NCBI GenBank assembly: GCA_963976765.1
Contig: CAXBME010000009.1
Span: 1-64,000, forward strand
Reading direction: 5' to 3'
Source of the DNA: an uncultured Planctomycetaceae bacterium
GTDB lineage: Bacteria > Planctomycetota > Planctomycetia > Planctomycetales > Planctomycetaceae
Length of the DNA stretch: 64,000 nt
This document shows, piece by piece, positions 14,844 to 59,808 of the stretch. How positions within the stretch are numbered: the first letter of the stretch is position 1; each line of letters starts with the position of its first letter. A program made the translations under genes and the position numbers. The notes beneath the pieces are model-generated. The model did no database searches. It was not told where the DNA came from and was given only the letters and a program-made list of their open reading frames with translations.

Positions 14844-14989
14844 GGCGAACGCTATTTTCGTCAGTTGAAGTTCGAGATGGTCACAGACGGGAGTGCCCAT
14901 CATCGAACAAGAATCATAACGGCATCGTTGACTCATCGGACAGCTCGGTATGATCTGACGCCGAGCCGCAGAAATTTAGAGCTGCAGTT

Positions 14990-15052
14990 AAGCACGAAAT
15001 TGCGCGGATACTCCAAAAGGACATCCGTGTTTATCTGTGTCATCCGTGGCTT
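14990..15052. repeat. Degenerate short-period intergenic repeat element (ATC[C/T]GTG x3 with a partial inverted arm)
   Basis: ATCCGTGT-TT-ATCTGTGT-C-ATCCGTGG-CTT at 15023-15052, with a partly complementary left arm AAGCACGAAATTGCGCGGAT. Confidence 0.5.
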
Positions 15053-15211
15053 TTAGATTTGGTCAGGCTTGCTGAGTATTGTCCCGGTTTTGCCTGATAC
15101 ACAATGGTTGACAAACTGCTGAACCGCGACTCAGCCTGCTTTTTGCAGCGTTGCGGCTAAATTCCACGTCTTCCTGCAGAAAAGTTCCCGTACCAATTAT
15201 CAAGAGAATTC

Positions 15212-16880: not shown

Positions 16881-19800
16881 TTACTCTGCTCCTGAAGCGA
16901 CCGATTCGCGAACGATTTCGGCCATTTTCGGTTTATCCGGAGCAGACTCCCACGGCGTGGTGAGCCACAGAATCGCTCGTCCGTCCTCGCTGGCAGTCAG
17001 CACGTACTTGCCATCCGGTGAGAACACAACTGAGGTGACCTCGCGAGTATGACCGTCGAGAGTGAGAATTTCCTTGTTCTCTTTGGTGTCCCAGAGTTTG
17101 ACCGCTCCGTCCTGGCTGGCGGTGACAGCACGAGTTGGATTCTCGCCCGGAGCGAAGGCCACGGACGTAACCCGTGCCGTGTGCCCAGCCAGAACTGACA
17201 GTTCTGTCCCGTTAGTCGCATCCCAGATGCGAGCGGTGTTGTCCTCGCTGGCCGTGATGACAAACTTACCATCGTCGGAGAATTCCGCAGAAAGAACGGC
17301 CCACTCGTGTCCGTTAAAGATTTGAGAGACCGCAGCTTCAAGACTCACCGATCCATCTGCCTGAGCGGTTTCTTTCAGTTTCCAGATGCGGGCTGTTCGG
17401 TCGTTGGAAGAGGTCAGAATCAGTGACCCGTCTTTCGAGAACGTAGCGTGTCGAACTCGATCTTCATGCCCGATCAGCGTTGTCAGAACGACTCCCGTTC
17501 GCGCGTCCCAGATTTTCGCGGTTCCATCGTCGCTGCCCGTCAGCACCCATCGCCCGGCAGAATCCGGTGAGAAGACGGCGGAATTAACGAACCCGGCGTG
17601 ACCGTTGTCACCGGCCAGTTTTCGCAGATCGGCACCCGTGCTGGCGTCCCAGATTCTGGCGGAGAAATCCCAGCTTCCTGTCACAATCTGCGACCCGTCC
17701 GGCGAGTAGCTGGCCGAAGCAATGACTCCATGCGGACTGAACGCGACGAGTGTTTCGTCGCTTTTTCGCCTGACAGATTTCAAGCCGATCAGTTTTGCAT
17801 CACTGCCGCCCAGGGCGACGATCGCGAGGTCATTTTTCACCGGAGCGAAGATTGCCGACCAGAGCTGCCCTTCTGAAACGTAGGTCTGGTCAGGATCGAT
17901 TGATGGCTGACCGTTCTCCAGCGAGAAGACAAAAGCCTTTCGACCATTGGCGTCGACTGCCAGACCCTTTGTCCCGTCAGCATTAATGGCGACGTCGGTC
18001 ACCTTCGCATCGCCGCGATTGAAGTCCGCAACGACCTTCGCCGTGTCGGCATCCCAAAGTCGAACGCTGCCGTCACCACATGCCGTAAGAACCTGGTGAG
18101 AGTTCGGACGCAGTGACATCGCGACGACGGAATCCGGGTGACTCAGAATCAGTTCAGGAATCTCTCTGCCCGTCGTCAGATCCCATTGGGCGACCGTTTT
18201 GTCGGCACACGCGGTGAGGACGCGGTTCGTTCCTGGCAGGAATGCGGCCCCCGTGATGCGACTGCGAGCGTGGCCTTTCAGTTCGAGAATCACCTTCTGC
18301 GACTTCACGTCCCAGATAAAGACTCGCCCGCTGGAATCTCCAGTCAGCAGCTGTTGATCATTTGCTGAAATAGCGACGGCTGTTACTTCATTGTTGTGGC
18401 CTTTGCTGTTTTCGCCGCCTTTGAAGACAAACGCCAGCTCACCGGTCTCAGCATTCCAGATTCTGGCCGAGTTGTCATCGCCGCCGGTGACGGCCCACTT
18501 GCCATTATTGGAAACGGTTAATGCAGCCGCTCGTCCGGTATGTTCAAGGCGAACCAGCTGAGTCCCCGAATCGACGTCCCAGATTCGGACCGTGTTATCA
18601 ACGGCTCCCGTCGCCAGGCGTTTTCCGCCGGGGAAGAAAGCGGCCGATGTTGCCAGGAACGAATGCCCTTCCGCAAACACCTTGAGTGGCTGTCCCGTAA
18701 CGGTTTCCCAGGTTCTCGCCGTTCGGTCACGACTGGCAGTGACAATTCGCTCGCCGTCTGGTGAAAAACCAGCCGACAGGATCGCATCGACGTGACCTTC
18801 CAGAACCTGTCCCTGAAGCACTCGAATTTCTTCGTACTCGCTGATGTTCCATTTTCGAATGCTGTTATCGTGGCTGCCGGACAGGATGACCTGATCGCTT
18901 TGAGCGAAAGCGACTGTTCGGACCGCTCCGTCGTGGCCACGAAACGATTTCAGAAGCTGACCACCTTCGGAGTCCCACAGGCGAATGGTGTTGTCCTGGC
19001 TGCCGCTGATGATGCGCGATCCATCCTGCGAGAACGCGACAGCTCGAACCGGTCCTTCGTGACCGTCAAGACTGCGGAACTTCGGAGGCGGAACCACACT
19101 TCCATTCTTCGATGTCAGCCGCGTGAAGTCGTAAGGTCGAACATCGCTCGGCCGCCAGACCAGGACGCGTTTGTCGTAGCCACCGGTGACAACCGCGTCG
19201 CCGTTCGATGAAAACGCGGCTGAGTAAACCGGTCCGTCGTGGCCGGTGAACGGCGCGCCGGGTTCGCCCGTGGTCACATCCCAGACGATGGCTGTGCCGT
19301 CCTGGCTGACCGTGACAATCTTCTTTTCATCCGGTGAGAACTGAGCGTCCCAGACCCACCAGTTGTGACCCAGGAACCGACGATTCTGCTGGCCGGTGGC
19401 CACATTCCAGATGCGTGCCGTGTTGTCATACGAGGTCGTCAGCAGTTTCTGACTACCCTGGCTGACTTTCGAGAAGTGCACACTGAGAACAGCGTCCGTA
19501 TGAGACGTCGCCTCGTTGGTGTTATTGCCAAACTTCTGGCTGACTCGTTCGCCGGTTTCAGCATTCCAGACCTGGACGTAACCGTTAACGGCGTCGTTGC
19601 TGCCCGTCGCAATCCATTTTCCGTCGCCGGACCAGTCAACCGAGTAAATGTAAAGCCCGTCGTGATGAAGTTGTTTGAGCTGCCGTCCGGATTCCAGATC
19701 CCAGATCGTAGCCGATCCATTCCAGCCGCCAGTGACAAACTGCTTGCCGCCTGGCGCCAGAGCAATCGCGTCAACGGGAGCTTTGTTATCAAAGGTGCCA

Positions 19801-22800
19801 ATACTCTGCGAGCAGAGGTGCATGAGCCGACCCCATTCCCAGTTTCTCAGGTGAGGCGGACAGTCTTTCAGAATCGTGATGGCTGCGTCGAAGGCGTTCT
19901 CGCGAATCTTGGCATCGGCCAGACCGATCCTGGCAATGTAGGCCTGATATTGTTCCGCCTTCTGTGCGAGTTCCGCTTCTTCCCGTTTCTCATCGGCAAT
20001 GCCTTTCTGCTTGACGGCCTCTTTCTCGTTGTTAAGTGCGATCAGTTTTTGCTTCTGAGCTTCCGCTTCGCTGGCAATAGCCTTCTTCTCGTTTTCCTGA
20101 GCTAACAGTCGTTGCTCTGCCTCCTTCTTCTGAGCCAGCAAAGCCTCGTCTTTAGCCTTCACGGCCAGAAGGCGCTGAGCCGCTTCCTTTTTCTGAGCTT
20201 CCAGCGCGTCGTTCCTGGCGAGAACCGCCTTCATCTCGCTTTCCTTCGCTTTCTTCTCGTTGGCCTCAGCGAGTTGTCGTTGCACCGCTTCCTTTTTCTG
20301 AGCCTCTAAGGCATCGTTTCGAGCGATGAGGGCCTTCTTCTCATTTGCCTCAGCCAGCAATCGCTGCTCAGCTTCTTTCTTCTGAGCCAGCAACGCTTCA
20401 TCCTTCGCTTTCTCTGCGAGTTCACGTTGTTCGGCTTCCTGCTTCTGAGCTTCCAGGGCGTCATTTCGAGCGACGACGGCCTTCTGTTCATTGGCCTCAG
20501 CGATCACCTTTTGCTCTTTAGCGAGTCCTTCCTGACGTTTCGCTTCTTTTTCGCTCGCAACCGCGATCAGTCTTTGCTTAACGGCTTCTTCGCGTTCCAT
20601 GTAGGCCCAACCGGCGAGTCCTGACATCATGATCAACGCCGCGACGGTGCCGACCGTCATGATGCGTCGCAGTCGGGCGCGAGCCGCCTTCTGTTCTTCG
20701 AGCTGGCGTTCTCGAGCAAGTCCGATGTTTTTGGCGTCGAGCAACTCGTCGTAAAGCGCTTTGTGTTCAGGCAACTCGACATTCAGCAGCGACATCCCGA
20801 GGTCGAAGTCACCTTTTGTCTGAGCACACAATGCGTAGGCCAGTTTGGTATCGGTCAGACCCTTCCGAGCGTGCTTGTTCTTACCCCAGAGGCTCAATGC
20901 TTCTTCGTAGCCAAAGCGAGCTCGCGAGAAAAGGTCGTAGTCCTGCTTCGATTTGGCCTCTCGCAATTCTTCCAAAGCACGCAATGTCAGCGTGATACTT
21001 TCAGTGTGAGACTCGTATTCCCGAATCGCTGCCTGGAACTCCTCGACCGACTGGTATCGGTCTTCCAGTTTCGACGCCATGGCTTTCATGGCAATGCTCG
21101 TGAGTTCGCCAGACGGGTCGCAGCGTTTGGCTCGTTCAGTGTCGGCTTCCCGAATCTTGTTCCGAGCTGCCGACATCAGACACTTCATCGCGTTCTTGCC
21201 AGCGTGTGGTGGCTTGCCCGTGACGATTTCAAACAGGATCGCCCCCAGAAGATAGACGTCGCTGCGTGGCCCGATTTTCTTGATCGGACCGGTGGCCATT
21301 TCCGGTGCCATGTAGGCGGGAGTTCCGCCCATGCTGGTGCTTTCGGTGATGCTTGCAGACTTGCGGAAACCCTCCGTTGAATAGGCGAGCCCCCAGTCCA
21401 TCACCAGGACTTCGTTGAACGCACCGAGCATCACGTTCTCAGGTTTGAGGTCACGATGAACAACACCGCGAGCATGAGCAAAGCCGACAGCGTCGGACGT
21501 TCGCATCAGAATGTCGAGGTTCTCTTCCAGCGATTTATCCAGAATGACGTCGAGCCACGGAGTTCCTTCGACCTTTTTCATCGCGTAGAACAGCGCGTCG
21601 TCCGGACTTGCTCCGACGTCGTAGATCGGGACGATGTTCGGATGATCGAGGTCGCCGGTGACGACAGCTTCGGTCAGGAACTTCGCGCGTTGTTCCGGAT
21701 CTTTCGCTGTCTTCGGCTTGAGCATTTTCAAAGCGACTTCACGGTCAATCGACCGCTGACGCGCCATAAACACCAGCCCCATACCGCCTTCACCAAGCTT
21801 TTTCAGCAGCTCGTACTCGGGCTCTTTCGGCTCGGGAAACGGAAAACCCTTCTTGTAATCACGGATGTTTGTCGTACTGAGTTTCTTCTCGGTAATCACC
21901 AGCGTGTGGTTCGGGCTCGCCTTCTGATAATCAGACGACTTGATCGTCATGTCCGGTCGATCGACCGGAGCTTCCATCTGGTCCGCGCCCCACGCGTCGG
22001 CCATCGTTCGACGATCTTCTTCCGACAGATCGCTCGTCGCGATGGTCTGCGAGAAACTCTGATCCGCGTCGTGCTCTCCAGACTGGATGGTCGCTCCGAA
22101 GCTGTCGTCGTCAAAGGCGCCACCTGCAATCGAAGGATCAGACTGAATGGTCGCACCAAAACTGTCGTCGTCGTCCGAAGGTAATCCGTGATCATCAATC
22201 GCGACGGTTTGTGAAAAACTTTCGTCACTGTCGCCGGTGCCGTCAGCTTTGGACCACTCGTCCGACTGGATGGTCGCCCCAAAGCTATCGTCATCAGATT
22301 GCCCGGATGGGTCCAGGGCGCTCAGCCCTTCAGCGGACCACTTTTCGTCCGACTGAACCGTTTGCGAGAAGCTCTCATCGTCAAGCGACGCATCCTGGAG
22401 TGTCTGATTGGGATCGTTGAATTCATCCGAGTCACCCATCGACCAGCCATCGTTAGACTGAATGGTCTCGCCGAAGCTGTCGTCGTCACTGTCCGTCGTA
22501 TTGACCGTTCTCCCGGCATCATCCTGGACCGTCTGAAACCCGTCGCGGAGTTCTTCTGACAGGTCTTCTGACTGAATGGTCGCGCCGTAACTGTCGTCAT
22601 CATCGTCGTCGTCGAGTCTTTGCGTGGCGGAACCATCGCTAAGATTAACCGCCTCGATTTCTTTTGATTCGACAGTCGCGCCGTAGACACTGTTGTCGTC
22701 GTCTTCGCTGAAACCTTCAGGGTCGATGACCTGACTGAAATCGGCAGACTCCATCGCGCTCCGGTCGCGAGGTTTAACATCGCCGGTTTCGAGTGCACTT

Positions 22801-24098: not shown

Positions 24099-24243
24099 AG
24101 CGGCCTGGCTCGATCATGAACCGAGGTCGCCACCATGCGGATGTGTGTCAGTCGTCTGTGTGGTTGTTCAATTCTCGCCATCCCTGACTGCATCCAGAAT
24201 TCAGCAATCGACAGTCCCTTGCCGATGAACACCCTCCTCTTAT

Positions 24244-54200: not shown

Positions 54201-57200
54201 CGGCACCGGTCCCGGTCGTGCCGCCCTCACCCGTGATCGCAATCGCTCCACTGCCAGACGTCGACACAGTCGCACCGACAAGCTCCACTCCGGTAAACGT
54301 GCCGGTTGTCGCTCCGCCTGAGTTCGCATTGAGCGTGACTCCACCGTTCACCGTTGAAATGCTTGAATCAGCACTCAGCAGGATATTGCGAGTCGCCGTC
54401 AGGCTGACGCTGCCCGTACCGCTCGTGGCAATGTCGGATGCGGCGTTCGGAGTGTTGATCACGTCCGCGGCGACCGTCAGCGACCTGTTTGCCGCGAAAG
54501 TTACTGTCCCGTTCAGATTCACCGTGTCTCCGGCATCGCCTCCGTTGATCACAATCGATGCCGGATACGATGCAGCCAGCGTTCCAATATCAACCGTATT
54601 GATTCCCGTGTCACCCGCGTTGATCGTCAGCGTGCCGGTTGGGTTGTTGAATGTCAGCGACTCGCCTGCGACATCGGAGTCGATCAACGTTTGCCCGCCG
54701 CCAGCGTCGGAAGCGGTGATTGTTTCGGCGGTCTCACTGTAGTTAAGAATGACGTTCGTCACGTTGATGTCGGCGGTGACCGGTTCCAGATTGGTGTAGT
54801 TGATGGTCCGTCCGTCGACGTCGATACTACCGGTGCTCTCGTTGACAAAGTCGTACGTGACCGTTGTAAAAGCGGTCGAATTACCTGTCAGCGTTAACGA
54901 ATCGCCCGGGCCAACGGTCGGCGCACCGCCATCGAACGAAATGTTCTTTGTGAACAGTCCGCCGGAGCCGGAATAGTCGATCGTCAGAGAATCAGCGGCA
55001 CCATTTGTGTTGACGATGATGTCGCCGCTGAATCGTGAAACGTCAATGCGGACCGTGTCAGCATCGATCTGCTCGACTCCGACCTGATTGCCGGCAACCA
55101 GCACGGTCGACGAGTCGTCAATCTGAACGTAGTCCGTGCCGCCATCGGTAACTCGAGTGAGAGTCAGCGTGTTGACCAGCCCTGCCAGGTCCGTGTAAAC
55201 GGCATTGTTGCCAACGATTTCGAAGATCGCTCCAACCACTTCCAGCGAGACGTCATTGCCGTCTCCACCGCCGTAATGAATGATCGCAACCAGCCCTGTT
55301 CCACCAAGGTTCGTGGCGACGACAGCGTTCTCCGCCAGTCCATTGAAGGTGCCAGTGACCGCGTCGGAGCCATCATTATTGATAATGATGAATTCGTCCG
55401 TCGCCGTGACTTCACTGGAAATCAGATCGCTGACATCCAGGCTGAGCGTGGCGTTCGCGATGTTGACCGAACCGGTGACATTTACCTGATCGTGACCGTT
55501 GGGATTGACGCCAGCTCCCTGGTCACCGTCGAGTTCAATCGAGAGTGTCGATCCCGAGTTGAGCACCAGGTCGCCCGTGTTCAGAATACCGGGGCTGAAT
55601 CCAGGCGCAACGAAGCTGCCAGAGCTGGCCGTCACGCTGCCCATGACCGTTCCTGTTCCACCCAGCGTCCCGGCGGTAACAAGAACCGATCCGGTGGTGA
55701 TGGTTTCACCGTCGCCGACGTTGAAGATTCCCGAGCTGATCGTGATCGTTCCGCTGCCCGCCGATGAACTGTTCCACGTCAGGTCGTCGGCTTCGGTCAG
55801 AAACTGGTTCCCATTGTTGGAGCCATTGGTCGAGTCAGTGGCGAGCGTCACCGCGGCGAGTTCGAGTGCTCCGTTTCCGACCCCGGCCGCCTGGCCAATC
55901 GCTCCAGCTTCGGCATTCAGAGTGATCAGGTCACCCGTCACGTCAATCGCCGAAGCATTTTCTCCGTCGGTGATATTTCCCGTTCGGGCGGTGAGCGTGA
56001 CCGCCTGCAAGCCCGTCCCGTCCCCGTTATCGACCGTATCGTTTCCGGTTAACGCCGTTACGTTGATGGCCCCTCCAACGATGGTCACGGCATCAACAAA
56101 CGTGGCGTTGTTGATCGTGACCGTCCCCGTTCCGTTGGCTGTGCTTCCAATGGTGACTGAGCTGAATCCGTCGGCCAGTCTCGCCAGTTCTGAATCGTCG
56201 AGTTGCAGTCCCGCGTCAGTGGCGCCAGTACCAAGATTGAGATTGGTGGAGCCCGTCAGCGGTGCAATTATCAACGCCCCGCTGGACTGAACATTGACGG
56301 AACCTGCCAGCACGACTGAGTCACTTGTCAGCGTGATGTCCCCAGCAGCGGTCACTCCACCAACCGAGCCGCTTGTGTTCAGCTCGATGCCGTCGCCCGT
56401 CGTCGCCGTACCGGTCATCGAGATGCTGGCAGTCCCTGTTGACAAAACAGCAGCCGCATTCTGGACGACCACTCCCTGGTTGTTCGTCCCGCTTCCGTTG
56501 GCACCGACTCCGACGATCGAAATATCGCCGCCCACCGATTGAACAGCTGTCGTGGCGTCGCTGATATCCACTCCGGAGTTGTCCGACGTTCCGTTTCCAC
56601 CCGATCCGTTAATGGAAATCGTTCCAGCAGTTCCGCCCGCCAGTGTGGACGACACGGTCGTTCCGTTCTGAAGCAGAACTCCGACGTGTGAACCGGTTCC
56701 TGCGTCATCACCACCAGCGCCTGTCAATATGATGTCGCCGGTGCCGGTTGTCTGAATCGTCGCGTTGTCGACATCAAGTCCGACGAAGTCTCCTGCAGCA
56801 CTTTCGGCGGCGTTTGCGCTCAGCGTAATTCCTCCATCCACTGTCGAAAGATCCGACCCGGTCTGCACAACAATATTGCCGGCTGTCGTGACGCTGATCG
56901 TGCCGGTGTCCGTCGTCGCAATGCTTCCATTGATCGTTGTCGTGCCGGTCCCAGCCGACTGAGTCACACTGCTGCCGCTCTCGACAGAGACGCTGGGCAG
57001 GTTAACGCTGGCTGCATTGACAATGGTCAGGCCGGCGATGTTCTCTGCGCCTCCGATCGCTCCCTGAAAGTCGACATTTCCGCCAGTACCACCGTTAATA
57101 CTCAATGAGTTGCTGGCCGCCGCCGTGTCTTCGATCGTGCCTGTGACCGTTACGTTATCCCCCGCCGCAGCACCCGCGCCAAAGGTTGTATTAATCGACA

Positions 57201-59718
57201 CGCTGGAGCTGAGCACGACGTTGGCGTCGATCGAGACAGCATTACCAGCCGTGCGAATGTCTGCGTCAAGCGTTGTCGCACCTGCACTGTTGAGTGTAAC
57301 AGACGCGTCGCCCGATCCGGTAATTCCGTTCGTTGACACTCCGGAATCCACGATACTGATGGCGCCAGCTCCGTTGGGAGCCTGAATTGTGACCGGATCG
57401 TTGAACGTCACGGAGTCAATCGAAACCAGATGCTCACCGTCGGCTCGTCCGATCGTCAATGAACTGAACCCGCCAGTCAGTTGGGCAAGGTCGGCATCCG
57501 TCAAATTGAAATCACCCGCCCCCCCCCCAAGACCAATGGACCTGGTCGTGGTCAGCGGCTGAAGCAGGATCGTGCCGGAGCCTGTAATGACGTTGTTAAT
57601 CGTGACATCGTCAGCCGTCAGGATCACGTTGTCCTGATCGAGATTGTTCGCGGCGAGGATGGTCAGTGTGCCGGCTGCTGCGGTGATCGAGACGTCAACC
57701 GTTGTTGTGTCCAGATCCGTGCTGTTCAGAGTGTCAACCCTGAGGTCTTTGGTCGTTGAGATGACGATCTCACCAGCATTGCCCGACCCGGTGGACGTCG
57801 CGAAGAGCGATCCGTCCCGGTTGGTCGCTCCCCCGGACGTGTCCCCGATCAGGACTGTAAACGCACCGGATGCGGTGGCTGCCCCATCGTCAGAAATTTC
57901 ACCGCCCGTCAGTACGATGTTGCCGGATGTCGCCGTACCCGCACCGGCATTGTTGCTGGTGGCCGAACCGGTTTCCGGAGTTTGCGTCCCGAACACACTG
58001 CCTGTTCCGGCAGTCAACGTGATGGAGCCACTCGTGGGGCTGGAAACTCCACTGGCGTCCCCGGTTTTTAAGTTCTGAGCGACATTGATCGAGCCCGTCG
58101 TTGTCGACAGCGTAATACTTCCCGTGTTGCCGGAAGTATTATTCGCCGTCGTAATCCCGGTCAGGCCGTCGATGCCACTCCCGATGGCAAAGCCGTTGTC
58201 CTCATTGGTCAGTGTGAATGAGTTACCGGGTCCGGAGACAATCCCCGCTACAAACGAGATGTCCCCCGTATTGTCGAGCAGCACAGATCCAGCCGCCTGG
58301 ACAGCAAGACTGGACACACTGAGCGCGCCGGCGCCGACGTCATTCAGCGATGCTCCCGTGATCAGACTGAGAGTCGCCACATTCGCAGGAGAAACGACTT
58401 CGGACGAAACCTCGATTGTTCCAGCGGCTGAGTGGCCGATGCGAAGGAGAGAGGCGGTGATAACGTCCAGCTCGGCGTCAGAGATTTCGAGTTCGTTGGT
58501 GGTGCCGTCAGGGCCGCCAAGCTGAATCGATCGCGCATCGCGATGTTGTCGCAGCTGTACAGTCTGCCCGGTGGCGGTGATCGCTCCGTCCAGCCTCATA
58601 TCGTCTGCTCGAATCGTGAGCGTACCGGCTGTAGAGCTGAGTGTTACTCCTGACGAAAGCGTAAACGGCAGTGACCCGGTGGCATCCGGTGCCGTCACCG
58701 TAATCGTCGTCGTCCCCCCTGACGTCACGTTCTGATTCAGGACCAACGGGTTGGCAACATCGATCGACACAGCGCCCTGAGCAGTCATCGAGCCATTCTG
58801 CGTGAGTGTCGCTGCGTCGAGGTCGATCGTCCCGCTTGAGTTAACCATTCCGGTGACGGTCGTCGCGGCAGTCGTTGTCACCTGAAGATCGCCACTCGTC
58901 ACATTGTCGTTCAGTGAAGCTGAGCCAGCAGTAATTGTCAGTGCCGAGTCGATATCAACGACTCCGTTGAGGGTTGCTGTTGAGGCAGAAGTGACGGTCA
59001 ACGATTCCAGGTCGTCCGTTCCGGCGGCACCGATCGCTCCCAGCACGACGTTTCCACTGCCCGCCGTCAGTGTCAGAGACTCAGCTGCTCCGCCCGCTGT
59101 CCCGTTCAGAGTTCCCGTAATCTCAATAGTGCCAGCGCCGGCTCCCGTCGTCAGGGTCAGATCCAACCCGTCAGCGATGGTGACATTTCCATCGAGCGTG
59201 ATGTTTCGACCGGCTGTTGTCAGATTTGCCCCAAGGTCAATGTTGGCAGACTGAATGTTGAAGGTGTCTGTTGTTCCACCGCTGATCGCCGCATTGACGG
59301 TTGTCGTTTCGATGGTCGAGTCGATCGACAGACCATTGCTCAAAGTCAGAGAATCAGAGAGTCGTACTTCCTGGCCGGTTTCATTCATGCCAGCCGACGA
59401 ATCGGTCGCAGTCAGCCGCGTAACGTCGGTTTCGAGAACCTCACCACCTCCACCGCTACCGCCGCTGAGCGTGTCGCCGTTTACAAGTATGTGGTTGCTC
59501 CCGTTGACTGTTACTTCCGCGACATCGTCCTGAGCATCGAGCATCAATTCGAGAACGCCAGCATTCAAGCCTGCCGACACCGTCAGCACGACACGATCTT
59601 CCAGTCGCGTCAATCCGAGCTGCGTAAAGCGATCCGGTTTCTTCGGTTTCCGATCCGGCTGGTACCGGCGGTTCCGAATCCGATCGCTGATTCTTCTCAG
59701 CCATGAATTCAACAGCAT
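24244..59718 (-). CDS. Giant (11,824 aa) exported beta-strand-repeat protein, haemagglutinin/adhesin-like, with planctomycete LEDR-type N-terminal export motif
   Basis: Single 35,475-bp ORF. Basic N-terminus plus LTRLEDRVVL, G/T/D/A/I-rich beta-helix-type repeats throughout, GGxGDDxF motifs, and a distinct globular C-terminal region. Confidence 0.93.
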   Translation of the reverse strand: MLLNSWLRRISDRIRNRRYQPDRKPKKPDRFTQLGLTRLEDRVVLTVSAGLNAGVLELMLDAQDDVAEVTVNGSNHILVNGDTLSGGSGGGGEVLETDVTRLTATDSSAGMNETGQEVRLSDSLTLSNGLSIDSTIETTTVNAAISGGTTDTFNIQSANIDLGANLTTAGRNITLDGNVTIADGLDLTLTTGAGAGTIEITGTLNGTAGGAAESLTLTAGSGNVVLGAIGAAGTDDLESLTVTSASTATLNGVVDIDSALTITAGSASLNDNVTSGDLQVTTTAATTVTGMVNSSGTIDLDAATLTQNGSMTAQGAVSIDVANPLVLNQNVTSGGTTTITVTAPDATGSLPFTLSSGVTLSSTAGTLTIRADDMRLDGAITATGQTVQLRQHRDARSIQLGGPDGTTNELEISDAELDVITASLLRIGHSAAGTIEVSSEVVSPANVATLSLITGASLNDVGAGALSVSSLAVQAAGSVLLDNTGDISFVAGIVSGPGNSFTLTNEDNGFAIGSGIDGLTGITTANNTSGNTGSITLSTTTGSINVAQNLKTGDASGVSSPTSGSITLTAGTGSVFGTQTPETGSATSNNAGAGTATSGNIVLTGGEISDDGAATASGAFTVLIGDTSGGATNRDGSLFATSTGSGNAGEIVISTTKDLRVDTLNSTDLDTTTVDVSITAAAGTLTILAANNLDQDNVILTADDVTINNVITGSGTILLQPLTTTRSIGLGGGAGDFNLTDADLAQLTGGFSSLTIGRADGEHLVSIDSVTFNDPVTIQAPNGAGAISIVDSGVSTNGITGSGDASVTLNSAGATTLDADIRTAGNAVSIDANVVLSSSVSINTTFGAGAAAGDNVTVTGTIEDTAAASNSLSINGGTGGNVDFQGAIGGAENIAGLTIVNAASVNLPSVSVESGSSVTQSAGTGTTTINGSIATTDTGTISVTTAGNIVVQTGSDLSTVDGGITLSANAAESAAGDFVGLDVDNATIQTTGTGDIILTGAGGDDAGTGSHVGVLLQNGTTVSSTLAGGTAGTISINGSGGNGTSDNSGVDISDATTAVQSVGGDISIVGVGANGSGTNNQGVVVQNAAAVLSTGTASISMTGTATTGDGIELNTSGSVGGVTAAGDITLTSDSVVLAGSVNVQSSGALIIAPLTGSTNLNLGTGATDAGLQLDDSELARLADGFSSVTIGSTANGTGTVTINNATFVDAVTIVGGAINVTALTGNDTVDNGDGTGLQAVTLTARTGNITDGENASAIDVTGDLITLNAEAGAIGQAAGVGNGALELAAVTLATDSTNGSNNGNQFLTEADDLTWNSSSAGSGTITISSGIFNVGDGETITTGSVLVTAGTLGGTGTVMGSVTASSGSFVAPGFSPGILNTGDLVLNSGSTLSIELDGDQGAGVNPNGHDQVNVTGSVNIANATLSLDVSDLISSEVTATDEFIIINNDGSDAVTGTFNGLAENAVVATNLGGTGLVAIIHYGGGDGNDVSLEVVGAIFEIVGNNAVYTDLAGLVNTLTLTRVTDGGTDYVQIDDSSTVLVAGNQVGVEQIDADTVRIDVSRFSGDIIVNTNGAADSLTIDYSGSGGLFTKNISFDGGAPTVGPGDSLTLTGNSTAFTTVTYDFVNESTGSIDVDGRTINYTNLEPVTADINVTNVILNYSETAETITASDAGGGQTLIDSDVAGESLTFNNPTGTLTINAGDTGINTVDIGTLAASYPASIVINGGDAGDTVNLNGTVTFAANRSLTVAADVINTPNAASDIATSGTGSVSLTATRNILLSADSSISTVNGGVTLNANSGGATTGTFTGVELVGATVSTSGSGAIAITGEGGTTGTGAGVIIRNNSQVLSSLAAGGGGITIDGTGAGDVAGGHGVTVTGTSTLVDSKSGAIQITGTGGAPASSHGVFLSAGADITSSDAVGAATINIMGTGSSNSASAGMIISDAGTTIASITGAIDISAVGAGAGDSGLFTTGGTIESTGAATVTITGSAVNGDALTFGNTEIGDAAGSGTITLIGDEVVLSGTTIIDGQGLLIFEPLVATTTIGLGGGAGTLNLDDAELAFLSDGFTAITIGDAANGTGAIEVGSSTFTDNVTIVGGPITVSGVLSVTGTTTLTAGGSVAINAGITSSGNIAVTATDTAGAGEDVDIATAVTVQSTGGSITINAGDDFSMAAGSVLNASATITVNIDSGDADSGTGATADLGGGFISGTGATVNSAGDSDTFNVNATTAATLTGAAGDDTFNVSFDVGGTIDGGSGGESSGDLLNLSGHATAQLLNLGNSSVTAVNSGNAAGFSNFEDFTGDGANDTLRGTASADTFTVVTENDGTVTGGTTADFNDFSILEGVDGADVFTFNASLTGSANGGDGDDTFNVNVDVAGTIDGGTTGETNGDLLNLAAHTTAQLVDLGNSSASALNSGGANGFANIEDFTGDNSNDTLQGTSGDDVFTVATENNGTVTGGATADFTSFSHLSGANGADTFTFNASLTGTAIGGAGDDTFNVNVNVAGTIDGGTTGETNGDLLDISAHTTAQLVNLGNGSVSALNGGGAAGFSNVEDFIGDGTNDTLQGTSSADTFSVTGENDGSITGGVIADFTNFSTLNGAAGDDRFNFTNGGSVALVSGNDGDDRTTVDLSSGNIPTQNIMVDGGANGETNGDDLIVIGDGIAGNDEATYTPTAAEAGTVDLNLDGAAGTDFTVMFTDLEPVDLTDMLVVTINGSANADTIALDNATSIGGEDAIQVSGTVDGFTMETAFVRDVGTLNILTAAGSDSVSINSATNAHNVTNLTLNTGTGTDSIAVAGSATVAGTMILTTTGSIADSGAGGTLSADSLKLDSGTGVGSSGNVIDTTVTTLAAQASVSGGVFVTETDGLTIGTVDSLSGVTAAAGDVFLVVTDGTLTVNEGVVATGAGNDVRIDVNGAGADDDIVLASNGNISATDQVELRASRDIIQSTSTITVSATSLAMIAGRDIGTGFGDAAIDTNVVTLGASAGNNAAGSIFVRETSAGGDLTIGEVMTGLSGTPTVTGAIANSSNGTVDIRTLDGGLVVSEVVTASGSGNVVLDAFDTGADSTHTIDIQASITASEAGGGDVHLRADAAISRSTGVGTVSGDSVYFEAGAGVGTSGNVIVTSAATLGVSAEGDVFVTEADSVTVTTAVTDLINGGTFEGIATSNDDVILNLMADGATLTIENDASGTNTVRLGAGDFFTRADEISIATGADFAVSATVVTLRSQADQSIALGAANNAADNILELNTAELAEISATDLIIGGGGATTTSIDLAADTSIASVTNVLLQSVGAIDNSGGAGVELNVNAGAGSLGLDAGGNIGGTNAFGTEVATLRAATSSGSIAVQESIAGGALQLGRVAIDGANFDNTSGTGTISVTTFDGNLTTLGTGGSVGTIGAGLSITLTAAGDIANNERDLVLNNSVTSNGGEIELNATGNVQLATADADVVSFTAATAGIIDINADSDGGEGGSLIIVDAGATLDSDSDTGGDSDAEIQISAADLDIQANATIDAGSAVLRIAPSAAAVVELGAGTSNFGVSNTEINFVDEASTIVIGRIDGSTTASSITVDGDFSVASVGGTPNLTLVTSGAIADDGTARTVATGATLTLDSQTGISGAGGSTNNLFGVAAVTLAARAETSGNVQIVEADGFMIGTEIEASSAFTGATDADASTPAAGILTATAGGHDIILETSAGDIVVGNRVAASKSGGSVVTIRSGGAIVDGGGTNNDVEDVFGQTVSLTSVTGVGTGAAGSLDVAADSLDATNSTSGNVEINLLDPNGGDVTVTSVDNQTTGDIVLTSTTSVAATDFTIQSLDTNAGSISVTLGTTAGGLLVNTSGIVADSAAGTAGTGTVTLDTTAASAPITVSAGISSDQGAIDVNSGAAFTLSDGVIIESAGGSVSIDTTGTNSLSVNGNIVTAGSGTITLTGSDAITMDADSLVQTAAGTITLTSAAGGVTTDIVESTGGGQIVIAANGAGASISEVDDAGRIGTGAASNLLLTATNAIGGSGAATLNTSVAQIEATAGAGGVFITNTGDLTIGNVDGGTTGVSATGSNIEITASQSLTTDEAVINSGTGSVNIVLTSTDDGGNDDDLTINDRVALTNASATGDVTLNAGNDLVFTDSGSANDVQNAGSGQIVANVARDLSVGEDVDVVTTGGMIDLNVGRNASLGANASVSSSGGAIDLAVSGSVSLGTNASISSGAATIVISGSTDLSLADQASITATNQLVTINTDEISISTSAGNEATISSGTARTIIRPESGGQAIAIDLGSNSGFANVLELSAAELDQITAGVLEIGSADTGAISVTAAIAPANTTTVHLITGATGTSVSQSAAATITETNLAITAAAAVTLNEDNHVDVLAVNVSGTGEISFTDADGLTVGTVDGVSGLDANAGNVSVTTGSGGGAGTGLQVSQNIVADSGGAGTSTVSLSGTDADEAFVLDDNTSINTNDGKITLTFDNFEIGTTGTSIHTTTANTVEIGTVNAGTRFSLGDAGANAADNVARLSDAELNRIGFTAAVAELEIVTANISANAIDMFGDVTLLNGQTPKLLLNATSGGITDSGAATLTVTTLGLQAGGGGIATSGNRLLVDTGNDTIAAAATGSIFITEADGATVGSVTVDGVTVTGITTTGAGGSIDLVVTEGTLTVNEGVVATGAGNDVRIDVNGAGADDDIVLASNGNISATDQVELRASRDIIQSTSTITVSATSLAMIAGRDIGTGFGDAAIDTNVVTLGASAGNNAAGSIFVRETSAGGDLTIGEVMTGLSGTPTVTGAIANSSNGTVDIRTLDGGLVVSEVVTASGSGNVVLDAFDTGADSTHTIDIQASITASEAGGGDVHLRADAAISRSTGVGTVSGDSVYFEAGAGVGTSGNVIVTSAATLGVSAEGDVFVDEAAAGTDLTIGQVQDLITPGTFDGIATSTDAVIVQLLADGGTLTVTDALSVDTIRTSGANVTLVADEMTFVSGNAQRGVNAGAAIVVLKSLNAQAVDLGSAATTVNDVLELSAAEIAEISAAGGSIVIGSDADATNITASSISLSADVDFTTSNVLLASTGDITSTNGANEVNVNAGAGSLTFQAGGSIGAAGTAFGLEVATVSAAAGTTDDLIEIEDIDGDLTVSRVTIGGTDFDNVSASDTVTIVASGGNLSTTALIGQISTTGDNDKITLTSSDGSVAINGSVTSDGGEIEINADTGITFDNVDADVVSFMTTGSGGQGIAGLIDINADVDGDGSGTFLISDAGATLSTDSNTDANIDISGGDFSLTADATIDAGTGTLLIAPGSGKAVTIGVGAADFGISNTEINFVDEASSLVIGQTNGTTTASSITIDGAFNLSTIATSPDNVTLITSGAISNAGGTLTMPAAADLLLLAQTGIGSSGNAIATAGLSDIAAQSNSGGVFVTNSGSGDVNITTVTDGVANTATGITSTTGGDIEVVNNFATGTLTVSQAVTAAAAGAVTLTTASGNVQVESGVTSDSGMIDVNSGEAFTLADGISVSSTSGSIDISTTGANALAVNGNVTTGGTGNVTLDGSDSIVMDGDSLVQSSAGNVTIDSANGGVTIDVVSSLGGGNIIVAAGSDGTADASDDLTLTDAVTASGSNGNISLFAGDTISVPVVTISAAGTGDVLLSAGTDFNEGGTLQNASDAGNVILADGSIVSSQGGNITLRAPGNVQISTVNADSDAGGAIGNVIVTADFDGVASGLSDNVGEITEVLMGEAANITADSLALRAATGIGSIDDLNTTVSTVAFSNGTSGNVNLTNSTGLTVGSFDGLTSSSNVGAGTTTIVASGAITFAHDTSSDGTLTAQALESAATNSDNIAVNAAVTVQSTAGNMIFEAGDRISLAATATVMATSSSAMITLDSGFGDTDSDGAMTLDGTISGNATNGVVTLDLNAQQGATQAGTGTVTAAGLQLLSTGNDGAFSLGTSTTNDVSTLSANTAGAITFRDTDTLTIGTVTTVGISTSNDDVAIQTGDTLTIDDAVSIGTGRFTINSANGATQVSGDDIAAQDLVLLGTGTFTLDSVGNDVDTVAADLDPGVISYTDVDDLSIGTVGSTIGINTGIIGTTDGGTVTINATSGTITVNQAINTQQGTGGGLVITGDVDLNASLTAGAGTITLNGNDVDTADIVIAANLIADGTIDLDARRDILVQATVQTTGTGSDIRLTADSDADTVGGLRVEGTGFVDSADEVTLEGSDLFVIAGTSEAVQIDVDNVSATNNQVQAGGAILIQDGVNAPATADTVINGRVAATTTTATITITAEQDVLFGADGDLIGLGGTITVTADTRSGNNGGTITMSDGTMIDATDGLIDFDADGNISLGQLTTTNTTDSAATITTTSGAILDITAAETSNISAGTTVLRAATGIGDAAVDNSDIDVSVGSLAATTSTGDISISDDAALDITTVDGLSGITITTGGAGDDILIREGNAAGSDDLTISQTISNSGSGNVTLFADGADSQNDNLNINASISASGGDVVIVSYEDVDFGSAPTVSTTGAGTIAIHAGRVFNFGAALTLGSTTADILEGGANEYIVQTAGGTITLTATRNIELETVNAGMTGTVIVTADSDLDGLGSIIDALASEAANITALSLALRAGDGVGSGEAADDADIDLVVTNVAAFTNTGDIHLQNTGGLTVGTVDSLAGVTITDDGNVNGGSDITIRAASPLTVSAGAPVVNNAGGNITLAAEGSDAADDLTINDAVTALGGDGNISLFAGDTISLAAITIGAAGVGMVVLSAGSDFNNATVRDGNADGDVLMTSGAIVQSEGGNITLQAPDDVQISIVNADSDAGSTIGDIIVTADFAGPDTSGGAGDTYDSDGVGAITDVLTGEAVNLTGNLATLTAATGIGSADDLDTDLAQVNVANSTSGSVMITELAGAGDNALEVTGVTNVTGNIDVRTEDGALTLSGAASTTTVGTITFVAGDSDNDGNGDLAIEASVSAATGQVTLTSAGNDVTFTAAGDVTTTTGEIEVNAGATGVGVITMTDNGATDATVLNAGSGLIDLNGVGDVTLGSVVTTNATVDAVNIASTTGAILDGGDFAVDIVADGGTTTLVAGASIGTAGNGLDTTIDRLNATSSAGDVHVDETNGLTAVSVTATGAGNDVDISSTTGDILVGVVTAPDTITLTTIDGGIEELSGGEADADADLVATTLNLDATVGIGDDATIEITATSIAADTANNNIDLLNQNPGAAVTATSLTTGTGTIDFVQTGNEALTVTLAQTTDGTITIQNTGDTDTDTLTLTAVTAGGSGDVNATTLTAGDVLVGAVIADANTVTVTSAGAINDAAIDTAIDVTVGTGTIDLNAVDGIGNTAALELAGTSISADTSAGAIDLDNVLATDVSVTSLTTVGSTITFDQSGGGSVSFDGLVSSGNAGIAGDDIVLTAANGDLTINAAVESRTADVTVTSTENVIVTAAGSITSIGGDVVLNSDTDTATSAGGGIRVLGIVTSAGGNITLGGGADPAVTNAVATAGSDSDGIKIDGGTLDAAAGNISLRGFSAIGDGVEIQTNAVIQTTSGNVSLQGSSTFDDGIALESGAVIETTSGAITLNGTTTSVSGDDGIKASDTGTTVTSATGSISFTGMASTGDGVDISAGAVISSTSTATIMIDGTSTAMTETGVKIRGANTQITSVDGNITITGTDNNTAGVFVTTGAEISSTGTGADAASITITGTGDAGIDIISAGTLITSVDGNILLDGTGNTFEGIVITDATISATGTTADAATITLDGVSTANDAVLLRSGSTITSVAGDIQLTGDASTATDDGIELEAGSTVSSTGSGAVVASITLLGTGGTNNDGIHIDGSVTSVDGNIQLAGTTSDADGDDGIDLDVGLIEATGSGAILLTGNGRTNGIELNSSITSNSGAITLQSVDDTIEFQAPASVMSNSGSVMVTADMTVGGASGQLLMADGSEILAGSGTIDIDAEGDITIGLLQTTDASSTAVTIDSATGAVIDAGNASVLNVDATAGRLVINAVTGIGAADTLETNVASLDVDNSTSGNIDILETDTVTVFDAQQATVGNIQIIAGGTLTVDNGGVVANAVATTGAGSIVLSATGIDSNLVINDGVQSATGTILLTADNDVFFDADGDVTSTTGNVTVTADADSATDSGGTDQGSITMTDGAVINAGSGLVDLNANEDILLSSVTTTTEVQATSVVGSILDNGDSDADVTAAMIALRALNGIGTDANSIDTVSDVGAGSLTIATLTDSGDIHIANTGALIVGTVDSLVGVTVSDAAAGGDDSGADNISLMAAGALTVNNDVTNSDGGDVTLTATDSGAAGDDVTVATGVSIEAADGNGNITLNAGDNLALNGTASVLAAGAGVVTVTADAGSVDAGGAISMADGSTVTSGSGLIDLNATDNITLGGLLTTGNVTIDTITGEVIDGGDANVDVTADTLSINANGGIGESAGSGADAAIETTISTLNATTTDGTIQIDESDGATLASVTAGGAGDVRIVTTTGNLSVQSVSADGDLVALTATAGAITDGSAGETENITADEVVLRAATGIGNASTNDADLDLAVASLAATTATGDISLSESAGLLVTTVDGLSGVSITAGGAGDDILIREGQAAGADELRILQDVSSSGAGDITIAAGGDSANDDLDIDANITSGGGNILIVSFDDIDFSAAPTMSTMGTGTIAVHAGRTFDFVSGVSAAGTGTATAAILQAAEYTIQTDQGDITLTANQNVELDSISSTSGTVIVTADADSTGTGSISDTLASESANITASAVALRAAEGIGLADDIDTSVATISATNSTSGSIQVDNAAGSDLTIATVNGLAGIMNGGGAILVNNLNGTLTVDDAVATVAGTGGALSLSGSLVINAPIDAGQFDVTLNGNDNGDDDLIVNADLTTDQALTLSASRDIVINATVQTTGAGSDITATADNDNDGIGGVQVTAAGQVNSADAVILTGADLFADAVGSESVQIDSNGATAQVLAAGDITIGPGAGAAAATDVEVNGLVQSTGAATTITITANRDVLFGVDGDVTRSDAGASGLISVFSDQTSIASTGGVITMADGTVINGGGGQVEVIADGRLTLGQIITTDLINIGSVAADVIDGGDTGGADLIASSLAIAGETGVGTDADSIETQVSALSGQTDSGDFHVSNTGDLAIDTVNLTVNVAAILGMVTVDGVQIEDSLDDNSGNDNITITTSDALTVNQTIVNNDGGNIALTSTNNGGANDHLTISADVTALGGTGSIDLNAGTDLTIDSDAVVSTVGTGAITGDAERAVSVSGSSTVVRTVEGTISLTANAGGHSGNFVGITVDDATVSTTSGAISLTGTGGNTGDANHGVVLTNTATITSTAGASAGAVSINGTGGVGAASDGVNLNNAAVHTALSTVDATISITGNSATDDGVALTNSAIASTGANGAISINGTTTGIGTDSDGVFASSSAISTTGDSAAINISGVTAGDDGVELTDDSDVTTSGAATITVMGTTTGSNGADSDGVLIGSTGGDVTITSAAGAISITGSASGASGDGVEIEAGIGLAIDANGGAGITITGTGDGAESAVQIDSPIESESGTITVRSLNGESTTDDITFGAGGDITSTSGTILIDADNAGNTADVFMADGAVINAGSGQIEINADVNVTLGQLITTNSTTTAVQITSATGGVIDGGDLGGADIISASGRTVIDAATGIGAADALETSFESIDADTSTGAIDLDNSLASTTTVISLTTVGGTVNFDQTGGGDLRITGNVTSGAVGTVGGNIELTSTAGLTAAGTSTISSNVGTGGLLSINEATIDAGATILVGAGDVTLNGSGQDTIINADITTATTATFTATRDVIIGATITTTHADADIIINANTDDDTAVGAGGVQLQTAGQLVAGRDVALTGSDLFVTNGAGALDSIEIQNDGAADQIVANRDISLTSRAASPAGADILVAGELLATNGSINIDATDRTVLNDNVDAGTDITFQDAVDISADITVTAGNDVTFFSTVDELALATGSDVIVNADGVTRFNAEVGGASALESLTTSEAGSTELEADVTVDNGAITFNDSVLLTGSISVTNTSASSINFNSTLDSQIDEHNNLVLTAATGEVVFDGDVGASTGAGTDDLMLGTLTITSAVEVTFGNNDGVSSIRTDGAIDVGSATTIGAGGITFDGVASTTTIETTSDTIRLNGAVTLNTDLRIDTDETAAASTGGATVTFTSDTPIDSQASEGNDLTIDAGTAQILFNEDIGNAAAGSELGRLVIEEATAGVTFGVADTETPGTGGSGPVNVISLVGDGALSALDVGSVTTIGGSGIVFNGGPDVTNTLLVETTGDDVRINGAVVLNSSVEITTGAGDGDVTFTNDSPIDSQTGESNNLTLTAGTGSVFINEDIGATESLGALTITRADGGVVFGEADAETPGDGSTGPVNTVSTNDAINIGSTNAIAGGIVLNGGASGIAFQTTGDNVRLNGAVVLQSNASIDTGDAGGDITFTSDSTIDSGDGTTAAPLGTTIERNDLFLDAGDGAVFFNASIGNTQRINDLTIDRAAGGVTFGAADTATTGAAGPVASVATDGAIDIGSGTTDDDVITGGIILNGAVVGISFQTSSDTVRLNGPVTLNSSVNIDTVNADVTFTNDASIDGQAGESNSLTINAGTARVLFNENIGETSAVGGVIVEQADGGVFFGTAEVEAVNGDAGSVDIVRTNGDSDIGSLAAITGGISLNAGPGAGNVFEWTTDGNSSRFNGVVTLDSSDVRISSGAAAGDVTFEDDLLPEANETVDLTLTAGTGNIVFGDVVGTTTLRFDDITVMSAADVTAQQAVETTTFAQTDGTGTTTFNGTLNTTDLLLAGVDINTSGITFNGAVTTTGDARVFLTNQGGTLTIAAGATFTVDNTFVQDGTGDVVVNANITTTNDEIRFSPTTDPTADVQAAASITLADGTVLATGGNADIRLRAEGDIRLSRLVTSSVDGLISVQSDAGAIIDNGDTGGADIVARNAALRAATGIGDDGLADPALNVAAADLPSATDPKIEASAIDTQVGLIAASNSTSGDIQISNTVGGLLTIGTVDGLSGITNDDDDASDDTVADGPNGGVIWITNASPIDVSSQAAPNSAEGVRNSAGGSVILTATDSAGAGDDLQIFAPVEAMRGTGSLLLNAGDDLTLESHLLTAIGSTVTLRDRAGNIDLNAGNVLTIGNNSELFDIQTGSLLEDAASGADTSVISQAHRETDFQTNRQIRYTQGPDATDLVLESGALLATNIVHQIDPATGNVVDNRILSNSGVIADFEPLLVEETFVTDQVRSDGYARISGRFGRTLDTAMTGGLDSEVNFRLLVAWGDDTFSFRHLTGATGDALPEIVNPMSGTLATGETIIDPADDPMGVTTSRTFFFEHFYDGSNLPDPENPGSPIQIRVFLQGDPNIVQVDANDRIAAYDNSTELLGGETPESTSFLANTDQFLISELLSPDLDAANLGEFGTGLGARVDTYRAPSMPGEQIDGIRNPAFNTVKPNPFGASTNLTTGLPAIVDFQFEEAAKVAFDLNLADQPNSVDASVTANVPGSGVDSSTAGFVFDLSPEVPTLEFPKVVEVLEAFVTTITQKDDDGGATNQARQSDETAATERVVWLKVLRPTGETVARVPAIVADNLVYSPLSGGGFRVMRVVEEVPLDEEVLDNLPKLVFEKLPDGQYQIWLQEPGEKDKRFVMDVTIRDGRPADDKAGARDRPPTSLKKPVNLPAAEEEAQQGPAKETSEKATPGISRKVSALGTSGSMQTDRQADGFEQAWSHWGQRPGAATGDASDRIGMMARLSDDITQPFDSVESADEEVIRNDNSSESMATMHPVAASVLLAAGSVLSKRKQNNWEDRVDDTMAQWDKVNRDRKS
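45023..45784. repeat. 762-bp near-identical direct repeat, copy A (partner 50291-51052)
   Basis: Boundaries match at offset 5268 bp, and translations in three other frames match between the copies. I found only two mismatches by eye (45052/50320 and 45769/51037). Confidence 0.92.
50291..51052. repeat. 762-bp near-identical direct repeat, copy B (partner 45023-45784)
   Basis: See copy A. Confidence 0.92.
51890..53010 (-). repeat. Three tandem 384-bp (128-aa) repeats with RTX-like GGxGDDTF motifs inside the giant gene
   Basis: CAGGTCGCCG anchor at 52153, 52537 and 52921 (exact 384-bp period). The unit reads GTIDGGxxGExxGDLL...EDFxGDxxNDTLxG. Confidence 0.9.
57519..57528 (-). repeat. G10 homopolymer on the coding strand of the giant gene (codons 731-734)
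   Basis: + strand reads ...CCCG-C10-AAGACC; the coding strand reads CTT GGG GGG GGG GCG. Confidence 0.9.
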
Positions 59719-59790
59719 GACGACGTTTCCTCGACGGCAAACTCAAACGACCGAATCAACAGGCTCTCGACCACGCCTGTGGTAACCCGG

Positions 59791-59808
59791 TCTGATGACC
59801 TCATCAGA
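59791..59808. promoter_or_regulatory. Perfect palindrome, candidate operator upstream of the giant gene
   Basis: TCTGATGA-CC-TCATCAGA, 73-90 bp upstream of the ATG at 59718. Confidence 0.4.

Follow-up and report, generated by a model that had tools for sequence, protein, structure and literature searches.

A Hanks kinase working with separately encoded envelope partners is known from PpkA-TagQRST-Fha1, the threonine phosphorylation pathway of the Pseudomonas type VI secretion system (T6SS). FhaB and CdiA are two-partner secretion adhesins with a periplasm-retained C-terminal region, LapA-LapD-LapG is a system of adhesin control by a protease and a cyclic di-GMP effector, and in eukaryotes receptor-like protein/receptor kinase pairs and adhesion receptors combine an exchangeable ectodomain protein with a signalling kinase. 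For Planctomycetota, single-pass Ser/Thr kinases with predicted periplasmic WD40 or TPR arrays were described, one species having as many as 19 WD40 domains in a single protein (main text of PMC11032199), as were surface proteins with an LExRxLL export motif and 'giant genes' (PMC8567305, PMC5177795); PMC5177795 nowhere uses the word 'kinase' in its main text. GlnH-GlnX-PknG of Actinobacteria, a Hanks kinase with separate envelope input, is cited in the main text of PMC11032199. Receptor-type Ser/Thr kinases number from dozens to hundreds in planctomycetes, which also possess many giant surface genes; the main text of these papers gives no input or function for either class. Here, a 64,000-nt stretch of DNA (positions 1 to 64,000 of contig CAXBME010000009.1; the window, to which coordinates refer unless a contig is named) from an uncultured Planctomycetaceae bacterium (GCA_963976765.1, the source genome G000) was analysed with regard to two neighbouring genes, one encoding an 11,824-amino-acid (aa) repeat protein, the giant, and one encoding a receptor-type kinase with 21 WD40 repeats. 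Proteins occupying the place of the giant beside such kinases are called partners.

The results describe a widely conserved two-gene, usually three-gene, module for which the genetic case is strong and which, judging from the sequences, would act in envelope signalling.

Conservation of the gene pair

The open reading frames (ORFs) of the window bear out the layout given by a preceding sequence-only reading, i.e., two huge co-oriented genes 145 to 217 bp apart, with a convergent gene on one side and about 820 bp of non-coding DNA on the other. The gap between the giant and the kinase gene measures 145 bp to the first ATG of the latter and 217 bp to the second, which is the start in three same-genus orthologues, the end of the convergent oxidoreductase gene lies at a distance of 43 bp from the kinase stop, and between the giant and its next upstream gene there are 818 bp. 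The statement that no obvious terminator lies between the genes stands in a weakened form: neither terminator-like nor sigma70-like sites were found in 23900-24500, which is a weak negative since shuffled sequences yield only 0.4 of each.

Conservation was followed in 401 genomes of the class, and results are given as counts and not as statistical tests because kin are not independent. In a first search, matches to the C-terminal 431 aa of the giant in 41 related genomes mostly lay just upstream of the best kinase matches. A profile of the small C-terminal domain of the giant (CTD) recognized 124 of the 401 genomes, mostly with one copy each, and a profile of the triple-WD40 array recognized 124 at E<=1e-120; 117 genomes held both, seven the CTD only, seven the array only and 270 neither. 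Adjacency of the kinase subfamily with a partner sharing the C-terminal domain, as the sequence-only reading had expected for other planctomycetes, was found in 109 of the 117 genomes holding both. The 130 CTD profile matches comprise 100 loci inspected by CTD position and six others, the remainder being judged on coordinates only. At 89 of the 100 CTD-keyed loci (one of them broken) the next co-oriented gene was a kinase of the family, and the others were accounted for by contig ends (three), weak matches in unrelated ORFs (three) and unpaired genes (five).

Scans in the opposite direction, in GTDB genomes and in metagenomes, used the kinase domain alone, as the CTD alignment was too variable for a DNA-pattern scan. 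The CTD was present upstream of triple-WD40 kinases in 32 of 37 GTDB loci, three of which overlap loci behind the profiles, and in eight of eight metagenome loci. By contrast, complete relatives without the triple array were preceded by a CTD in 2/41 (GTDB) and 0/55 (metagenomes) cases, both hits being broken genes. By deduction, the five GTDB misses are L176, L185, L198 (a large ORF lies upstream and scores weakly for the CTD), L209, and, in L193, one half of a gene split by a frameshift. The discordant genomes, most of which can be accounted for, include two with divergent paired kinases (G009, G015), one broken kinase (G019), one contig end (G258) and three weak CTD matches, as well as three with an adjacent partner on a longer profile (G375, G331, G363), two with the partner on another contig (G232, G396), one with a partial partner match (G238) and one with none (G313).

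The adjacency extends across many genera and several families, the relatives including Planctomycetaceae, Pirellulaceae and Lacipirellulaceae. Families f4 and f5 gave no array match (0/86 and 0/92), and a phylum-wide sample of 301 genomes gave one weak CTD match (E 7e-4) outside two families already known to carry the CTD. As background, kinases account for 74 of the 5428 ORFs of the source genome, and of its 34 LExR-type proteins with a downstream gene, one is followed by a kinase. The pairing of giant and kinase is thus far above chance.

Genes that are merely old neighbours, co-inherited or co-regulated without acting on each other, might show the same picture: kin are non-independent, vertical inheritance of a single locus can yield both high linkage and similar trees, and the binding between CTD and WD40 array is one that we infer. 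Nevertheless, this explanation appears very unlikely. Downstream neighbours are not conserved while the pair is (a conserved gene downstream of the pair was considered and rejected, the largest cluster comprising 9 of 108 loci), genomes with two or three copies hold separate pairs, and the CTD outlasts replacement of the whole partner body. Moreover, in five genomes (G021, G055, G208, G293, G357) the genes are unlinked and both are retained, which favours function over hitch-hiking. We therefore regard a functional coupling of partner and kinase as highly probable.

Partner, kinase and third gene

The sequence-only reading had described the partner as a giant protein. Its giant size is incidental, since partners range from 784 to 11,824 aa with unrelated bodies, and complete partners with an LExR leader of their own and PKD or other bodies occur down to 784-867 aa; elsewhere the body consists of PKD repeats, a right-handed beta-helix, DUF5649 repeats or unassigned repeats. 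What defines the partner is its C-terminal module (Ig/PKD-like domain, CTD and tail) rather than size, and the system consists of a constant base and an exchangeable body, of which the 11,824-aa protein is a local extreme (Table 1). The source genome has an even larger LExR ORF of 17,289 aa (G000:C8:68822-120691), with an RTX-type end and without an adjoining kinase.

In the alignment, the partner end reads Ig/PKD-like domain, short Pro-containing motif, linker, CTD, acidic disordered linker, Ala/Gly-rich hydrophobic segment and basic tail. The Ig/PKD-like domain keeps the consensus VDWGDG...HxY...NP; the AlphaFold2 core has a predicted local distance difference test (pLDDT) score of 70-93, and its Ig-like structural matches (Z 8-9) are not specific. 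The CTD, about 75-100 aa long, was modelled as a small beta-sheet with one helix (pLDDT 90, predicted template modelling score 0.77). Foldseek returned no match for it at E<=0.001, the best structural match (Z 5.2) being non-specific, and the ESM Atlas gave no usable match for the C-terminal 686 aa of the giant; 458 CTD relatives were found at E<=0.001 in a representative library. A C-terminal signal of the type IX secretion system (T9SS) was considered for the CTD and not adopted, as T9SS C-terminal domains reached only Z 4.3-4.5. A role as a general secretion tag was ruled out since the CTD, and the module as a whole, is single-copy in the source genome.

Beyond the CTD, a hydrophobic 15-mer with a Kyte-Doolittle value (KD) of at least 1.2 occurs in 57 of 82 partners and is followed by net basic sequence in 52 of those 57; the last 40 aa are net basic in 70 of the 82. 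The segment and tail are predicted to be a membrane anchor or sorting signal. Comparison of the tail with curated models of sorting signals (PEP-CTERM, GlyGly-CTERM and sortase types) showed a similar layout, with Rumino_NPXTG as the only match, below its cut-off (14.4 bits against 23.5), and an exosortase gene is present in the genome, unlinked to the pair. The CTD is retained where the tail is lost (G093, G144, G301, G103) and where the body is replaced; it is the sole element never lost from paired loci, tail and body both being lost from some. In genus g15 (L021/G021, L132/G208) the partner stops about 30 aa past the CTD, the tail is absent and the kinase is unlinked, and in G021 a different, divergent LExR gene lies a few kb upstream of the kinase.

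At the other end of the giant, the LExR motif stands at residue 39, and it was found in 14 of the 19 partners for which the locus includes the start of the ORF; the leader did not match PF07595 (LExRxLL-type) in Pfam at E 0.01. The protein is rich in Thr, Gly, Ala, Asp and Ser, with 11 Trp and no Cys. Searches of Pfam and NCBIfam found no family above cut-off in the giant, the first 4000 aa had no PDB match, and for one body segment the nearest named ESM Atlas cluster was DUF5649 at 0.87, a lead only, the others (0.90-0.91) being unnamed. From its composition, signal motif and homologues, the giant is probably exported and may form a filament of beta-rich repeats. It has 51 internal repeat matches. 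One of them, a 143-aa segment, is present with 100% identity at 50290-50718 (giant residues 3001-3143) and at 45022-45450 (4757-4899), which points to a recent duplication or conversion within the giant.

The kinase layout given by the sequence-only reading, i.e., repeat arrays, intact kinase motifs, one transmembrane helix, a heptad stalk and 21 WD40 repeats, was upheld by Pfam, hydropathy and a repeat count made by eye with the family consensus. As an architecture it is not new, kinases of this build being on record for Planctomycetota in the main text of PMC11032199. Gly loop, catalytic Lys and Glu, HRD-x-K-x-x-N, DWG and APE motifs are intact and kept family-wide, with the HRD His replaced by Asn in 10 of 82 members. 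These NRD kinases form one subclade (L080, L081, L084, L091, L092, L095, L106, L126, L024, L032) that retains pairing, and the loci with catalytic-loop variants NYD/HYD (L026, L112) are still paired. The acidic Thr repeats of the N-terminal region may be sites of autophosphorylation and FHA docking; in 50 of the 82 family members a Cys4 zinc-ribbon-like start replaces that region. The only hydrophobic helix (residues 1146-1164, KD 1.67) has a basic N side; family-wide, KD is at least 1.5 in 80/82 members and the N side is the more basic in 81/82. The outward orientation of the WD40 region claimed earlier therefore holds as a topology predicted from charge and hydropathy, with the kinase domain cytoplasmic and the array extracytoplasmic, presumably periplasmic, in line with the prediction for such kinases in the main text of PMC11032199. 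The stalk varies between 53 and 240 aa, with 54 of the 82 lengths belonging to a single class modulo 7, i.e., it changes in steps of seven as expected for a coiled coil; at 0.15 nm per residue it is predicted to span about 8-36 nm. The repeat number suggests three propellers. The post-kinase helical region, proposed by the sequence-only reading as the subfamily marker, was rejected as such, since two unpaired paralogues in the source genome share it and deep branches are not settled by a 40-row tree; the role of marker falls to the 21-repeat WD40 array.

A third gene is usual at these loci. In 7 of the 10 loci with a visible 5' end, the divergent 5' neighbour of the partner encodes a protein of 218-367 aa. 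It begins with what looks by eye like a signal peptide, continues with a low-complexity linker and closes with a Cys-containing domain that has a hydrophobic helix at its end; the product is predicted to be a secreted Cys-rich protein. With 5' ends estimated from open-frame lengths, in genomes chosen for contiguity, the gene lies divergently within 3 kb of the partner in 34 of 45 loci and 33 of 43 genomes, and its domain occurs in two to five copies in 43 of 43 genomes tested. This domain, which has no Pfam, NCBIfam or PDB match above cut-off, is, together with the CTD, one of two unnamed domains defined here. In the source genome and its congener G003 the third gene is unlinked, the homologues in the former being at G000:C33:30820-32418 and G000:C5:312895-313974. 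The earlier description as a two-gene system thus applies to the pair and to this locus, and falls short of the usual arrangement.

Table 1. Features of the partner and kinase genes in the window (residues are those of the encoded protein)
Feature	Position	Strand	Basis or remark
Partner gene (giant), 11,824 aa, LExR-signal repeat protein with conserved C-terminal module	24244..59718	-	ORF and translation
N-terminal basic leader with LExR motif, residues 1-46, proposed planctomycete export-signal type	59581..59718	-	
Variable body, residues 47-11215, Thr/Gly/Ala/Asp-rich degenerate repeats, predicted beta-rich	26074..59580	-	
Ig/PKD-like beta-sandwich with long insertion, residues about 11216-11500	25219..26073	-	AlphaFold2 model
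CTD, new small alpha/beta domain, residues 11563-11657	24748..25032	-	Marker of the system
Acidic disordered linker, Ala/Gly-rich hydrophobic 15-mer (24328-24372) and basic C-terminal tail	24247..24741	-	Predicted helix
Kinase gene, 2,405 aa, single-pass Hanks kinase with stalk and 21 WD40 repeats	16881..24098	-	Likely start 24026
N-terminal region, predicted cytoplasmic, helical repeats, then acidic Thr-containing repeats	21909..23987	-	
Kinase domain with intact motifs, and post-kinase helical region	20664..21815	-	Pfam Pkinase, residues 762-1015, E 3e-38
Single predicted transmembrane helix, basic on kinase side	20601..20663	-	Hydropathy and charge
Ala/Glu/Lys-rich heptad stalk, 219 aa	19944..20600	-	
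21 WD40 repeats with family-specific conserved motifs	16950..19814	-	Pfam and consensus
Gap at usual third-gene site, 818 bp	59719..60536	.	No remnant

Proposed contact between partner and kinase

We propose that the pair forms a two-part surface receptor in which the kinase reads the C-terminal module of the partner in the periplasm, a proposal to which the features above give about an even chance. The tail, with its positive-inside anchor layout, would hold the CTD in the compartment of the WD40 array, the periplasm. There the CTD, separated from the membrane segment by a median of 96 disordered residues, would lie some 100 residues of flexible chain from the inner membrane and inside the reach of the stalk. 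As the CTD is never lost from paired loci and both tail and body are, it would in the simplest reading be the docking element and the propellers its receptor; the chances for such a direct contact are evenly balanced. A weak point in its favour is that CTD distances follow those of propellers 1-2 slightly more closely than those of the kinase domain (values below). Binding, pulling or cleavage of the outer body might then alter the contact between CTD and propellers, which may switch dimerisation of the kinase and its autophosphorylation at the N-terminal Thr repeats, to be read by FHA proteins, while the third gene would supply, as our guess, an envelope factor for export or anchoring. The output might be related to adhesion or contact. 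A fuller version, that of a two-part bacterial adhesion receptor, is more tentative, with the chances somewhat against it. In this version an exchangeable protein, which can reach 12,000 residues, would pass through the envelope, possibly with the product of the third gene doing the threading, and would keep its module docked on the triple-propeller kinase so that attachment or pulling is turned into Ser/Thr phosphorylation.

Several observations weigh against a periplasmic contact of this kind. The hydrophobic segment is short and weak, reaching KD 1.6 in only 33 of 82 partners, and is missing in some paired lineages, and an FHA gene directly follows the kinase in only 5 of 108 loci. Inter-chain covariation (mutual information) amounted to 0.94 pairs per 10^4 at z>4.5 against 1.24 for the cytoplasmic kinase-domain control, in an analysis underpowered at an effective number of sequences of 90, and the correlation of stalk length with partner linker length was slight (rho 0.25, p 0.056, n 57). 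No export route was identified: POTRA_2 was not found in the source genome, the controls being matched in 5/14 cases, and a ShlB search, which matched none of its controls, was not counted. Complex prediction for the WD40 array with the CTD, carried out on the homologous pair of L150 with all 21 repeats, gave 0.24, 0.46 and 0.31 in three runs (median 0.31 against a mark of 0.32; controls 0.00) and was counted neither way.

Furthermore, 20 of the 34 LExR proteins of the source genome end in RTX-type repeats, which leaves ambiguous which end stays at the cell. Retention domains mark the cell-proximal end in RTX adhesins, and the CTD could be distal if the LExR end is cell-proximal. In that event the LExR end would be the anchor and the CTD would sit at the far tip or be shed, with the kinase sensing it in trans, on a neighbour cell or as a released fragment, or being coupled to it indirectly, e.g., through expression of the locus. 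The RTX-type repeats and acidic termini of those 20 proteins, which by analogy with LapA suggest C-terminus-first secretion for that class, would suit such an arrangement, and the CTD and propellers 1-2 vary in step between lineages (r 0.74 and 0.73 for the CTD distances, against 0.66 with the kinase domain, weak values as kin are not independent). However, none of the 82 partners ends in RTX repeats, the giant having none in its last 300 aa, and the prevalence of basic ends contrasts with such a terminus; the order of linker, hydrophobic segment and basic tail suits a membrane anchor better than a distal tip, and no sigma factor or regulator recurs beside the pair, upstream neighbours being visible at 10 loci only. 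A distal or indirect role of the CTD thus seems unlikely.

Signalling might also run from the inside out, or monitor assembly: the kinase and the third gene product would chaperone or gate export, retention or shedding of the partner, possibly by phosphorylation of its basic cytoplasmic tail, and the outside would not be sensed. The linkage data fit this explanation equally well, the frequent divergent gene, whose product has a hydrophobic C-terminus and is predicted to be secreted, is in line with it, as is the fact that no TpsB-type transporter was found in the source genome, and many tails carry Ser or Thr just ahead of the basic helix. Asn or Asp often takes the place of this Ser/Thr, however, as expected for a helix cap, pairs persist without any tail, and a 15-fold variation in partner size is not matched by any change in the kinase. 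We consider this alternative improbable, and prefer the receptor reading of the C-terminal module.

If the fuller version of the receptor reading is true, the pair would be a prokaryotic functional analogue of integrin or receptor-like protein/kinase signalling across two planctomycete orders. The finding gives one kinase subfamily a specific candidate ligand, a domain of 75-100 residues that is mostly single-copy and present in about a third of the class, for which compact partners of 784-1,130 aa exist. It also draws attention to how LExR proteins are exported, a problem still to be solved.

Related loci and comparison with known systems

In some lineages (L018, L019, L073, L086, L140; L020, L099, L185) an FHA gene comes after the pair and T6SS genes are found nearby. 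A VgrG-like gene, recognized by eye, lies within three genes of the pair in 3 of 108 loci, and ImpA_N was confirmed at L020; the window holds no FHA or T6SS genes. Such neighbours possibly represent a lineage-specific output. Beyond the kinase gene, 10179-16837 encodes DXP synthase, polyprenyl synthetase, a squalene-hopene-cyclase-like protein and the flavin oxidoreductase, a neighbour limited to the genus.

The source genome holds a second giant-plus-kinase pair (G000:C3:1-23157 and C3:23403-28202), a repeat protein of 7,700+ aa with, directly after it, a kinase of 1,599 aa that has acidic Thr repeats and ends in a TPR-like array. The C-terminal domain of that giant is unlike the CTD and resembles that of a giant at C5:168787-178440, which has no neighbouring kinase. 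An LExR protein of 2,898 aa (G000:C54:5675-14371) has a hydrophobic-basic tail of similar kind, and the gene after it (C54:1421-5593) encodes a TPR protein of 1,390 aa with a CHAT-like protease end, recognized by eye; this is possibly the same logic with a protease as output. The LExR proteins with RTX-type repeats and acidic terminus belong to the 34 of at least 800 aa, 16 of which carry an xDxxF motif, hinting that LExR proteins may be type I secretion substrates with an N-terminal anchor.

The pair shares with the FhaB/CdiA and LapA systems a huge repeat adhesin-like protein whose cell-proximal part would be under the control of an envelope protein. It differs in that Pfam and NCBIfam detected no two-partner secretion domain, the genome has no POTRA_2 transporter, the C-terminus has no RTX signal and the controller is a receptor kinase. 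The likeness to eukaryotic receptor-like protein/kinase pairs is one of analogy only, with no sequence or fold kinship past generic Ig and WD40. With PpkA-Tag and GlnH-GlnX-PknG the pair has in common a separately encoded envelope input to a Hanks kinase, and a Thr-repeat/FHA logic is plausible. No Tag or Gln homology was seen, however, the partner belongs to the large, modular surface proteins and the T6SS link is lineage-specific. By the features tested, the pair is no two-partner secretion pair, RTX adhesin, T6SS phosphorylation module or extracytoplasmic function (ECF)-kinase pair.

Within Planctomycetota, the kinases described in the main text of PMC11032199 share the predicted cytoplasmic Pkinase domain, the one predicted transmembrane helix and the C-terminal WD40 array. 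That main text names no partner and does not contain the words 'neighbor', 'adjacent' or 'operon', whereas the 21-repeat subfamily has a dedicated, genetically coupled partner. The LExRxLL giant surface proteins (PMC8567305, PMC5177795; main texts) share with the partner great length, repeat body and predicted surface location, and the N-terminal motif of the partner resembles theirs. By contrast, the partner ends in the Ig-CTD-linker-hydrophobic-basic module, unlike the RTX-type end of most LExR proteins of the source genome. Neither the pair nor the CTD nor the third gene was found described in full-text literature searches, a scope outside which lie supplements and subscription papers including the original LExR motif paper. 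Taken together, the kinase architecture and the LExR surface proteins were already known and the pairing, the CTD and the third-gene domain appear to be new, and by analogy the pair most resembles a Hanks kinase with separately encoded envelope input, an adhesin-like protein here taking the place of that input.

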